This document shows, piece after piece, positions 27,284-63,560 of a stretch of 63,560 bases of DNA (position 1 is its first letter; the number at the start of each line of letters is the position of its first letter). The DNA comes from Chitinophagaceae bacterium (GTDB lineage Bacteria; Bacteroidota; Bacteroidia; Chitinophagales; Chitinophagaceae), in the NCBI GenBank assembly GCA_046598205.1, contig JBKJIX010000022.1:1-63560 (forward strand), written 5' to 3'. The position numbers were made by a program, and so were the translations under genes. The notes beneath the pieces were generated by a model. It worked only from the letters and a program-made list of their open reading frames with translations, made no database searches and had not been told where the DNA came from.

Positions 27284-28434
27284 TTTAAACTTGCCAATAC
27301 TTCGCTGGCAATCTTAACATCTGCGTCAGTTATTGCTAACGCTGCAATATTTTTTCTTAGTTCATCTTGTTTGCTTTCATCCATTGATAACTCAATTGTC
27401 ATGAACACCAGCTTTTGCATCACTTCATGATCCTTTACCATCAATGCTGCATTCTTTTTTACCAATTGCATCGCATTGACCATTTGATGATCTTCCGCAG
27501 CAAAAGGATAGGGTACGAACAGAACAGGTTTTTTAGCTACACATAATTCAGCAACAGTCATTGCCCCTGAACGGGCCACTACAATATCAGCAGCAGCGTA
27601 GGCATATTCCATTTGTGTAATAAAATCATTCACCCATACATTCTTATTTTCCACTGCCCTTTCAACTGCTTTTGCTGCATACGGTTTTCCTGTTTGCCAA
27701 ATTATTTGCAGCCCTGCATTCAATAAATTATCCAGCCCTTTATCAATGGCCCCATTAATGGATTTAGCACCGAGGCTGCCTCCAACAACAAGAACTGTTT
27801 TTTTAGTTTCATCCAATGAAAAGAATTCTATCCCTTCACTTCTTGTAATTGTTGCATCAGCTATAGAAGTACGTACAGGGTTTCCGGTAACTTTTATTTT
27901 ATCAGCGGGGAAAAATTTTTCCATTCCATCTGTACCAGTAAAAATTTTTGTCGCTTTTTTTCCAAGCATCATATTAGATTTTCCTGCAAAGGAATTAGAC
28001 TCATGAATAAAACTTTTAACTCCCGCTGCCTGTGCAAATCGTAATACCGGAAAACTTGAATAGCCACCAACACCAATTGCTGCATCAGGTTTAAATTTTT
28101 TAAAGATTGTTCGCACCTGCAAAAAACTTTTCATTAGCTTAAAAGGCAATCCTACATTTTTTATCAAAGAGCTCCTGTTAAATCCTGCTATATCTAATCC
28201 TTCGATCTGATAACCGGCTTGTGGCACTTTCTCCATTTCCATTCTACCTTTTGCGCCTACAAACAATATTTCGATACTACTATCAATCTTTTTCAACGCA
28301 TTCGCAATAGCGATTGCCGGAAAAATATGTCCGCCTGTTCCACCACCTGCTATTATCACTCTCTGCCCCCTGCGCCCCCTAAAGGGGGAATCAGAAACTT
28401 TATTATCATTAATACTTTCGCTCATACCAAACAC
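27280..28434 (-). CDS. murG: MurG glycosyltransferase
   Basis: GGGTGGHIFPA, HESN, GNPVR, GGSLGA, RSGA. Confidence 0.97.
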   Translation of the reverse strand: MFGMSESINDNKVSDSPFRGRRGQRVIIAGGGTGGHIFPAIAIANALKKIDSSIEILFVGAKGRMEMEKVPQAGYQIEGLDIAGFNRSSLIKNVGLPFKLMKSFLQVRTIFKKFKPDAAIGVGGYSSFPVLRFAQAAGVKSFIHESNSFAGKSNMMLGKKATKIFTGTDGMEKFFPADKIKVTGNPVRTSIADATITRSEGIEFFSLDETKKTVLVVGGSLGAKSINGAIDKGLDNLLNAGLQIIWQTGKPYAAKAVERAVENKNVWVNDFITQMEYAYAAADIVVARSGAMTVAELCVAKKPVLFVPYPFAAEDHQMVNAMQLVKKNAALMVKDHEVMQKLVFMTIELSMDESKQDELRKNIAALAITDADVKIASEVLASLK

Positions 28435-61053: not shown

Positions 61054-61363
61054 AGACAAAAACTTCACCCCCCTTTTTTTTAAATACAATTTGGGGTTCT
61101 CAGCAATAGTAACTCCGGTCAGCAGCAGTCCGCCGCCCGCCTCCAATCTTTTTTGCCCACCACACCAGCTATAAAAAAAAAGGATTTCCGGCTAAGCGGC
61201 GCAGCCCATCAGCTATAGAACAAATCCAGGCAATAGCTGCACATCAAAGCCCCCTGAATTACAGGTAGCATTTTCCATTCTTATTTCTACAAATAAAACA
61301 TAATTGGCCAATTCAGCATCGTAGCCGGATAGGAAGTTGTAAATTCATTTACAAACAAAATAA

Positions 61364-62605
61364 ATGAAGCAGGTAATTCTAAAGCCATTACAGCACCGGG
61401 AACAGGAATGTATCGGTATTTATTTTGAAAACTCATCTGTTCTTAATGGTGCTATTCGTAAGAATGCCGGAGCCAGGTGGAGCCGTACCAATAAATGCTG
61501 GTATGTGCCATTGAGTAAAGAGAACTATAACAAGCTCTTCTTTGCATTAAAAGGGAAGGCAGAAATAGAACAGGCTGCGCTGCTTCGCTATCTTTCAGAA
61601 AAGAAAACTCAAACATCCTCTGTAACTGCATCCAGCAAAGAGTTCTCTGTTAGCAAAATACCCGTCACTCAAAAAAAAAATGCTACGCCCTGGACAACGC
61701 AACGGGTAGCTGTATTTAAAAAAGAACAAATAAGCGCCGCCAATGCACATATCATACCTGCTATGCATCAGCATTTGAAATTGAAAGCCTACAGCCCCTC
61801 GACCATAAAAACGTATCTGAATGAGATGTCGCAGCTACTTAATTTATTAAAAGGCATTCCGGCCGATCAACTTACGGTAGCAGATTTGAAAAGATACCTG
61901 GTATATTGTTTAGAAAAATTAAACCTGAAAGAAAACACTTTGCATAGCCGGATCAATGCTTTAAAGTTTTATTATGAGCAGGTACTGGGTAGGGAAAAGT
62001 TTTTTTGGGAAATACCAAGACCGAAAAAACAATTGCTATTACCAAAATTGCTGAACGAAACAGAACTAACAAAGTTGTTCAATGCCCTTGTAAACAAAAA
62101 GCATAAAGCGATGCTTTTTACTGTTTACAGTTCAGGATTAAGAGTAAGCGAAATTGTAAATCTTAAATTAGAGGATATTGATAGCCAGCGGATGCAAATA
62201 CATATCAGAAGAGCAAAAGGTAAAAAGGACAGGTATGTAAACCTAAGCCCCGTATTGCTTGATATTTTGAGAAGTTATATCAAAGCTGCAAAGCCCCGGC
62301 CTAAAGAATACCTTTTTGAATCGGAGCAAACCGGCAATGCCTACCCCACCCGGACTGTACAGCAGGTATTTACCAATGCCAAACAAAAAGCAGGAATACT
62401 AAAAGAAGTTGGAATACATAGTTTACGGCACAGTTTTGCCACCCATTTATTAGACAAGGGAACTGATATACGTTATATAAAAGATTTGCTGGGGCATTTC
62501 GATATTAGAACAACAGAAAGATACCTGCATGTCAGCAAAAAACAATTGGTTAATATTATAAGTCCCTTCGACGATTTATGGAAAAAGGAAACAATCGACT
62601 GGTGA
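61364..62605 (+). CDS. Tyrosine recombinase (integron-integrase-like, without IntI insertion)
   Basis: SGLRVSE (R), KGKKDR (K), HSLRHSFATHLL (HxxR), LLGH, TTERY (Y); SAM-like YSPSTIKTY domain; ~130-aa N-terminal extension. Confidence 0.93.
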   Translation: MKQVILKPLQHREQECIGIYFENSSVLNGAIRKNAGARWSRTNKCWYVPLSKENYNKLFFALKGKAEIEQAALLRYLSEKKTQTSSVTASSKEFSVSKIPVTQKKNATPWTTQRVAVFKKEQISAANAHIIPAMHQHLKLKAYSPSTIKTYLNEMSQLLNLLKGIPADQLTVADLKRYLVYCLEKLNLKENTLHSRINALKFYYEQVLGREKFFWEIPRPKKQLLLPKLLNETELTKLFNALVNKKHKAMLFTVYSSGLRVSEIVNLKLEDIDSQRMQIHIRRAKGKKDRYVNLSPVLLDILRSYIKAAKPRPKEYLFESEQTGNAYPTRTVQQVFTNAKQKAGILKEVGIHSLRHSFATHLLDKGTDIRYIKDLLGHFDIRTTERYLHVSKKQLVNIISPFDDLWKKETIDW

Positions 62606-62696
62606 ATAGGTAAAAGGCCTTTGGTGGATTGTCCTAATAACAATACAAAATGTATAACACTAATTCATTGATTTTCAGACAGCATTTTTTTTGAAG

Positions 62697-62735
62697 GGTG
62701 CGTCTAATAGCATAAATTTACGTGTTATCGTCAAT
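62697..62735 (+). other. Putative attI-like recombination site (crossover G|TTATCG at 62724/62725)
   Basis: GTTATCG 119 bp after the integrase stop; exact complement of the attC-like left core. Confidence 0.65.
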
Positions 62736-63266
62736 CGTTTCAGCTATTTTTCCGCTCTGCGAAATTTTCTTACTGTAATTAAAAAACATTTTCATCTACA
62801 ACTCTGGTCGTAGTTAGAATATGTTCTCAACTGTGGTAACACTGATGAGCTTTTGTCCCGGCTTTCCGTAACACGGATGAATGCAAGTTGCTTCAAATCC
62901 GAACTGCGTAGTCAGAATAAAACTTCAACATTTGTAACACAGATGAGCTGTAGTTCCAGGCTTTCCGTAACACGGATGGCAAATGGTCGTCTAACGATTC
63001 AATAATAGTCTGCTGATTTATTTTTTGTTGCCAATAGATAAAAGGCATTTGATGGGACGACCGTATTACGAAAGCCGATAACAAGGGGTTTTCTGCTATG
63101 CTGGCTGACGAATATATCCTGATCATCCTGTCCCCTACTCAACTGTAGTCCGGGCTGACCGAATAAATCTCAACAGTATATCTTAACTTCAACATCAGTA
63201 ATTCTATTGGGCTTCAGTTATGGGCTTGACGTTTTTCAAATTCCAGCACAGCAGAAAGCCCTAACG
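62725..63266 (+). mobile_element. Putative gene cassette 1 (ORF-less, 542 bp)
   Basis: Bounded by two GTT cores and ending in an attC-like hairpin. Confidence 0.65.
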
Positions 63267-63272
63267 TTGTAC
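63076..63272 (+). other. attC-like site, 197 bp
   Basis: CGATAAC core, arm GGGTTTTCTGCTATGCTGG, long loop, arm CCAGCACAGCAGAAAGCCC, core GTTGTAC; arms 17/19 complementary. Confidence 0.75.
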
Positions 63273-63560
63273 GTCACCCTAAACGACATTCTGCAAACAT
63301 TTAAGCATCCAAGAATTTGCCGACACGACCCAACGCACCAAGTTAGGCACATTTGCAAGGCACACAAAGCCAACACACAAAAGCCAACCTTGCAAAGAGC
63401 TAAAAATGCCAACGCACAGCCCACCCACCCCGGCTGACGACTATCTATCAACATTTGTTCGACACTTTAGCAATATATCTTTACTCAACACCAAGCCCAC
63501 CCACCACCCAACTGGCGGACACTTAACAATTTGGGATAGACAAGTGCAGCAAACAGGGTT
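63267..63560 (+). mobile_element. Start of putative cassette 2 (C/A-rich non-coding leader; runs off window)
   Basis: Begins at G|TTGTAC; strongly C/A-skewed with internal hairpin. Confidence 0.5.

Follow-up and report, generated by a model that had tools for sequence, protein, structure and literature searches.

Can bacteria of the phylum Bacteroidota collect gene cassettes with a tyrosine recombinase that falls outside the definition of the integron integrase IntI? The question is raised by one end of a contig from a 3.5-Mb Chitinophagaceae draft genome (99.7% complete), analysed here as a single stretch of 63,560 nucleotides (the window), where an uninterrupted recombinase ORF (61364-62605) is followed on the same strand by units that resemble cassettes. 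Because the window is the entire contig, the array is not followable past 63560, where the sequence stops. We consider it likely, from sequence comparison, that this is the head of a chromosomal array, in which the adjacent insertion-less recombinase would excise cassettes as circles and insert them at the GTT of a docking site, probably acting, in the way of integron integrases, on an AAC…GTT hairpin folded from single-stranded DNA. As judged by comparison across loci, the feature is real, as is the cassette platform in relatives, and it is likely a gene-capture system missed by standard integron screens.

The following features are referred to throughout:

61364..62605 (+): tyrosine recombinase of 413 aa, with an N-terminal extra domain, a linker, a SAM_4 core-binding domain, a catalytic domain without the IntI insertion and an IntI-like C-terminal SP(F/L)D motif
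61364..61618 (+): extra N-terminal alpha/beta domain, weakly HARP-like in a structure model (a lead only)
62624..62726 (+): attI-like docking region, matching a motif in relatives, with a putative crossover at G|TT (62724/62725)
62690..62720 (+): candidate cassette promoter by sequence, TTTG-N19-TAAATTTA, overlapping the docking site
62724..63265 (+): cassette 1, 542 bp, apparently gene-less, ends complementary at 4/5 positions, homologue in L008
63080..63268 (+): attC-like hairpin site made up of AAC, a short spacer, a 19-bp imperfect arm, a 138-nt loop, the second arm, a spacer and GTT
63266..63560 (+): first part of cassette 2, which belongs to a non-coding leader family and is truncated where the contig stops, with homologues in L017, L050, L006 and the genome's own contig C52

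Two units next to the recombinase

A preliminary description of this locus had reported a GTT at 62724, a 542-bp unit and a 197-bp AAC…GTT repeat. All three are confirmed, the repeat measuring 189 bp from AAC to GTT and 197 bp with four flanking bases on either side. Since GTT stands at 62724-62726 and again at 63266-63268, cassette 1 is 542 bp long; it contains no ORF of more than 77 aa, and the 955 bp visible downstream of the recombinase are likewise gene-less. It carries an internal duplication (62809-62879 and 62907-62978, spaced 98 bp), and its homologue, with the same two boundaries, occupies the second position in L008. The AAC of its hairpin site lies at 63080-63082, and the arms of the hairpin (63086-63104 and 63243-63261) are 89% complementary. 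The folding energy is not significant alone (z -0.84 for the top strand, -1.84 for the bottom strand), so that the reality of this hairpin rests on comparisons.

The homologues of cassette 2 match from GTT in L017, where the unit comes second; those in L050, where it comes first, and in L006 match from base 8. Its leader (window 63286-63517; L017:12101-16239; L050; G000:C52) forms a repeat family with a summed depth of up to ~600, part of which is found again at the distal end of inserts with several genes, which hints at a nested carrier of large cargo.

A tyrosine recombinase without the IntI insertion

The catalytic residues R260, K288, H352-x-x-R355, H378 and Y387 do not vary among the 49 relatives aligned, in keeping with the intact R-K-HxxR-H-Y signature that had been read from the window before. 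What the protein lacks, also as originally claimed, is the insertion specific to IntI: the K-D-R motif and HxLRH are 61 residues apart, compared with 100 in IntI1 and 66 in the XerD-like protein of the same genome. The alignment with IntI1 (28% identity) has gaps where the insertion would be, the match to IntI4 is split, and TIGR02249 reaches 178 bits, in two stretches, against a cut-off of 265. The recombinase has the SAM_4 domain in common with IntI, as well as an SP(F/L)D motif at the C-terminus; the Pfam matches are generic phage-integrase ones, and the catalytic domain is of XerA/XerD length, with archaeal XerA as the best match in both sequence and fold.

The extra N-terminal domain is modelled with a pLDDT of ~85-90 in the full-length protein. 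Its resemblance to the HARP domain of SMARCAL1 (Foldseek probability 0.80, E 0.12, from a separate single-sequence model with pLDDT 65) is not significant; DUF5710 is matched below cut-off in 32/49 relatives, and some array-linked relatives, such as L098 (289 aa), are too short for a HARP-like domain. The housekeeping genes ubiE and porT lie directly upstream of the recombinase. A weak Flavo-1-like hairpin was also seen upstream (61141-61190, minus strand; 21 bits, gathering score 42, E 0.26).

A fixed docking site and a variable junction

A scan of a genome collection confirmed 330 relatives among 408 candidate stretches, and the best 80 of these 330, mostly from Chitinophagaceae, were analysed alongside the window. 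In 63 of the resulting 81 loci, the recombinase gene is followed by a docking motif of ~100 bp that ends in …CATAAATTTACGT-GTT; among those with at least 130 bp downstream, the count is 58/67, and the pattern missed visible variants of the motif in L077 and L078. Past the R box of the motif, conservation collapses, and the first 50 variable bases are distinct in 49/49 loci (at least one docking call, that of L034, looks false). A comparison of downstream content between relatives, which the preliminary description had proposed, returned different content in every locus compared. Four relatives (L004, L005, L012 and L043) have the same housekeeping neighbours upstream as the window, with the recombinase directly after porT, and the downstream DNA differs in each. 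The same border appears in public metagenomes, where a 958-nt contig is identical to 62008-62726 and has no match for its other 239 bases, and a contig from a second run also stops matching at 62726 (the two runs belong to one study, and one is possibly the source sample).

On this comparison, the recombinase and the conserved docking motif are a fixed platform with an attI-like site next to the integrase, and the variable units begin exactly at GTT, i.e. from G|TT onward; platform, boundaries and mobility are all apparent when loci are set side by side.

The candidate promoter was matched against what we take to be the promoter consensus. A -7-like box is found in 44/63 loci and a TTG 18-21 nt upstream of it in 25/63, while the strict form TAnnTTTG occurs in only 8/63. 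Between the recombinase and the docking site, 7/80 loci (L004, L016, L038, L040, L045, L068 and L075, among the best 80 of 330) carry a gene that is presumably ssb-like, going by its N-terminal motif; such a gene was also seen by eye in L056 and L065. One record labelled Yersinia (L025) has a Chitinophagaceae-type recombinase and docking site and is likely misbinned.

Cassette arrays in related genomes

Downstream of the recombinase, relatives contain a row of small units with co-oriented ORFs and no phage or conjugation module. A model-free scan returned 70 AAC…GTT arm pairs in 234 kb of downstream DNA versus 14 in 593 kb upstream (some sites are counted twice), and a profile trained on downstream sites placed all of its 63 sites downstream, with no match in upstream DNA or on the reverse strand. 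Most of these 63 sites (54) are 180-199 bp long, eight are 110-129 bp and one is 231 bp. The search for further AAC…GTT sites suggested by the preliminary description was therefore productive: they are numerous in relatives and mostly separate single ORFs.

The ends of the units offer a further comparison that excludes the bases of the profile. When the five bases after the opening GTT of a unit are set against the five before its own closing AAC, all five are complementary in 36 of the 46 units shorter than 2.2 kb, as would be expected if every unit had once been circular, with the opening between its hairpin and the GTT. Applied within one site, the comparison finds a match in only 3/46; over 10,000 shuffles, the count averaged 2.05 and never exceeded 9. 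Perfect complementarity is missing in 10/46 units, the window's own unit (4/5) included; ten longer units were excluded from the test, three of which also match. The longest ORF is forward in 33 of the 36 end-complementary units, and of the 33 cargo proteins, six have a Pfam match at 1e-5.

Chains of at least five units are present in 7 of 40 regions (mostly from long contigs; six are cut by contig ends), with shuffles reaching four at most, and the site lengths within chains include 42-46, 67, 120-132, 186-193 and ~223 bp. A recombinase relative at E <= 1e-40 is found in 112 of 301 genomes of the phylum. Having a homologue of the recombinase does not mean having a cassette system: a well-supported clade of 12 short relatives (L101, L103, L108, L110, L112-L115, L117, L119, L129 and L133) has no array downstream.

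Insertion sequences sit just after the AAC of hairpin sites in L049:12510-17070, L054:12870, L083:14020 and L087:14870; those in L083 and L087 are IS110, and L049 has its element in at least two copies. One plasmid array contains four copies of a mini-unit of ~170 bp that is gene-less and self-complementary (L083:10875, 13001, 15382 and 18451).

Anatomy of the hairpin sites

The sites share a distinctive build. In 36 distinct sites, pre-selected for at least 13/18 pairs, a 3-nt left and a 5-nt right spacer are followed by a stem of ~19 bp, with a mean pairing of 16.4/19 as compared with 10.6 when the arms are permuted; many columns show several pair types. One stem column has a top-strand A·C mismatch in 35/36 sites, and another has T·G in 24/36. 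No bulge interrupts the stem in 44/59 sites; a left-arm extra base occurs in 6/59, near the stem end, whereas the classical controls aadB, arr-2, cmlA5 and aadA1 all have left-arm extra bases. The sites therefore lack the extrahelical bases of the R''-L'' arm, yet they do show the imperfect inverted repeat of the type RYYYAAC…GTTRRRY, with complementary ends and with flanks that depart from a strict RRRY consensus. Folding has no strand bias (the bottom strand is more stable in 34/59, p 0.15).

In L054, L083 and L084, group II introns of no assigned class are inserted at A|AC, in the opposite orientation. IIC-attC introns occupy the same A|AC position on the bottom strands of attC sites, according to the passages at hand of PMC7923331.

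The preliminary description had taken the oversized attC-like site as a distinguishing mark. That point falls away, as related sites range from ~42 to 225 bp; the real difference lies in the geometry of the stem.

A proposed mechanism and its rivals

In the mechanism that we propose, the recombinase of the window would be the catalyst that excises units between two hairpin sites, and the resulting circle would be inserted at the docking G|TT. Its substrate would be a single-stranded hairpin, probably of the bottom strand, and new cassettes would enter at the first position, to be transcribed from the promoter that overlaps the docking site. Since there is neither an IntI insertion nor a set of extrahelical bases, strand choice might, speculatively, depend on the 3/5-nt spacer and the near-invariant stem mismatch, perhaps with help from the HARP-like N-terminal domain.

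It is conceivable, if unlikely, that the same recombinase moves cassettes on short double-stranded core sites in the manner of Xer/pdif, and that the long inverted repeats have another role, for instance as RNA structure, in termination or as a repeat element. The Xer-like length and matches of the catalytic domain speak for this, as do the lack of extrahelical bases and of a folding strand bias, and the missing insertion is called essential for integron function in the part of PMC8138268 available. The sites themselves fit such a scheme poorly. Their AAC and GTT are 42-225 bp apart with a loop of free length, more than one duplex site could span; the two arms covary rather than keeping their sequence; the complementary ends make a site only once AAC and GTT are folded together; and introns that target hairpins have entered at the same position.

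We regard it as very improbable that the units were built by a true IntI located elsewhere, which would make them CALINs (ordinary remnants of integrons) and the recombinase a bystander. IntI1 weakly recombines the similar veb1 site, as reported in excerpts of PMC3518468, related sites also turn up across other contigs of the same genome and many recombinase relatives have no arrays, all of which would suit a bystander. Against it, no IntI above cut-off was found in the 99.7% complete draft, the docking motif follows the recombinase in 58/67 loci with enough downstream sequence and has the variable junction at its end, and the sites are without the extra left-arm bases of the four classical controls. 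Least probable of all is that the locus belongs to an ICE or prophage, with the protein as its integrase and the GTT as an attachment site, a case that the preliminary description had itself named as contrary to its reading. The generic Pfam matches would allow this, and relatives do occur at several chromosomal places and on plasmids. No attL/attR repeat was found in the window, where no 14-bp stretch of the upstream gap recurs except for one distant match at 27855. The housekeeping genes ubiE and porT stand directly upstream, as they do in the four relatives whose downstream DNA differs, and downstream of relatives lie small units rather than a phage or conjugation module (a larger element could still have its far end on another contig). 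Membership of such an element, sought through attL/attR repeats and phage or conjugation genes in the window and the flanks of relatives, was accordingly rejected. Recombination of folded hairpins by the adjacent enzyme thus remains the reading that we prefer.

Relation to integrons and rAID-1

The likeness to integrons extends from the SAM_4 tyrosine recombinase with its C-terminal SPLD-like motif to the docking G|TT, the imperfect AAC…GTT hairpins, units with mostly one forward ORF, complementary cassette ends, gene-less cassettes and the presence of group II introns and IS in the sites. Unlike integrons, the system has a recombinase with an extra N-terminal domain, without the IntI insertion (61 versus 100 residues) and co-oriented with the array; the sites have no left-arm extrahelical bases, a 3/5-nt spacer, a stem of ~19 bp with the near-invariant top-strand A·C mismatch, and in this clade lengths of mostly ~125 or 188 bp. 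Co-orientation had been put forward as a departure in its own right. The gene does point into the array here, but integrons with a co-oriented integrase exist, as in Treponema. An 'Inverted_integrase' column in the supplement of PMC4889954 records such an arrangement among true integrons.

Enzymes close to this one have been touched upon before. Sections of PMC8138268 mention an integron-like subgroup of tyrosine recombinases in which the insertion is incompletely conserved, and parts of PMC4889954 mention four integrases intermediate between IntI and Xer, related to IntI, in which it is missing or not conserved. As for the phylum, the portions consulted of PMC9024848 give only In0 elements for Bacteroidetes in 2016 and one complete integron, in Salinibacter, in 2022.

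The nearest described system is rAID-1 of Bacteroidales, which pairs a recombinase of the XerD family with co-oriented immunity genes, between which lie repeated motifs 'reminiscent of' integrons (Ross et al., bioRxiv 10.1101/471110; PMC12247911, each in part). The available text of 10.1101/471110 never uses the word 'attC' and gives no site anatomy. rAID-1 has sites of 42-46 bp with an ATT core and immunity genes, and it is described only for Bacteroidales, whereas here the sites are long, the relatives are Chitinophagaceae and the recombinases form a separate clade. By definition, rAID-1 has a recombinase more than 44% identical to BF9343_RS08045, at least two co-oriented downstream genes of low GC, and orphan immunity cargo in a Bacteroidales host. 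The window recombinase is 43% identical (116/269) to that of L085, a rAID-type array from Parabacteroides against which identity was measured here; none of the 33 cargo proteins belongs to an immunity family (Pfam, 1e-5), and the closest relatives are mostly Chitinophagaceae (best 80 of 330). L085 shows the own-end signature in a chain of eight units with 42-46-bp, ATT-core sites.

The claim of a Bacteroidota cassette-capture system parallel to integrons is thus supported by the comparison of relatives. The accompanying query whether it had already been described can be answered in part, in that rAID-1 covers it for Bacteroidales; no full description was found in the openly readable literature covered. 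The parts consulted of PMC8618304, PMC2864571, PMC3414803 and PMC11523902 added nothing on this system. The system would work like an integron, falls outside the IntI definition and extends rAID-1; a link to resistance cassettes of clinical importance is plausible.

Integron function is taken to require the insertion, and IntegronFinder surveys give almost no integrons in Bacteroidetes; a working platform without the insertion would change both views. If it works, it would offer a directly testable case of hairpin recombination through another recognition route, and it would supply a mechanism for gene acquisition by rAID-1. A new site model would, moreover, show surveillance a large pool of unannotated cassettes, given that 27/33 cargo proteins have no Pfam match.

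Links to resistance cassettes

Cassettes with tet(X), lnu, estT and veb1 are bounded by hairpin sites of the same type, as are genes on plasmids of Riemerella and Empedobacter. Of the 15 cassettes scored, 11 have perfectly complementary ends, and aadS also matches by eye; complementarity is imperfect in the blaOXA unit and in both tet(X3)-type units (2/5 for tet(X3)). The 'xerD/tnpF' gene that precedes tet(X3) in plasmids of Acinetobacter is a short relative of the recombinase (47.7% over residues 167-405). After it come a GTT junction, tet(X3) itself and 98 bases that match the beginning of an Empedobacter site exactly; this stretch is present in 48 Acinetobacter records. A Klebsiella plasmid has a truncated recombinase relative, followed by GTT and blaVEB-3.

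The veb1 cassette now resides within class 1 integrons, yet its site is of similar build. Its two ends are GTTAGCGG…CCGCTAAC, as in the lnu(H) cassette, and its right arm scores 13.4 bits on the site profile, with the left arm below 10 bits. The part of PMC3518468 available describes a 133-bp site with L boxes off the attC consensus and one extrahelical G, which is 50 times less efficient with IntI1 than the aadB attC. The platform proposed here would explain this atypical and inefficient site, the rows of resistance genes on Riemerella and Empedobacter plasmids, and the 'xerD/tnpF' gene beside tet(X3) in Acinetobacter.

From their sequences, we infer a Bacteroidota origin of these resistance cassettes. 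A wider reading, towards which we lean with only slight confidence, is that Bacteroidota run a second, phylum-wide class of integrons, with an insertion-less recombinase acting on bulge-free hairpins and rAID-1 as its gut branch. On this platform, tet(X), blaVEB, lnu(H/I), estT and aadS would have been turned into cassettes. Pieces of it (truncated recombinase, docking site and first cassette) would have reached plasmids of Acinetobacter and Klebsiella, and IntI1 would have captured veb1 from it; it may even preserve integrons in the state that preceded the gain of the insertion.

Sites elsewhere in the genome

Away from the recombinase, whole or half sites of the same family occur on seven other contigs of the same genome (C52, C139, C204, C43, C201, C16 and C50); some adjoin PIN-like or defence-like genes and are possibly solo cassettes or array fragments. 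Finally, contig C208 (minus strand, 637-2668) encodes a distant second recombinase together with an IS91-like transposase, a pairing also seen in L086 and L091, with a hairpin site ~1.2 kb further on.
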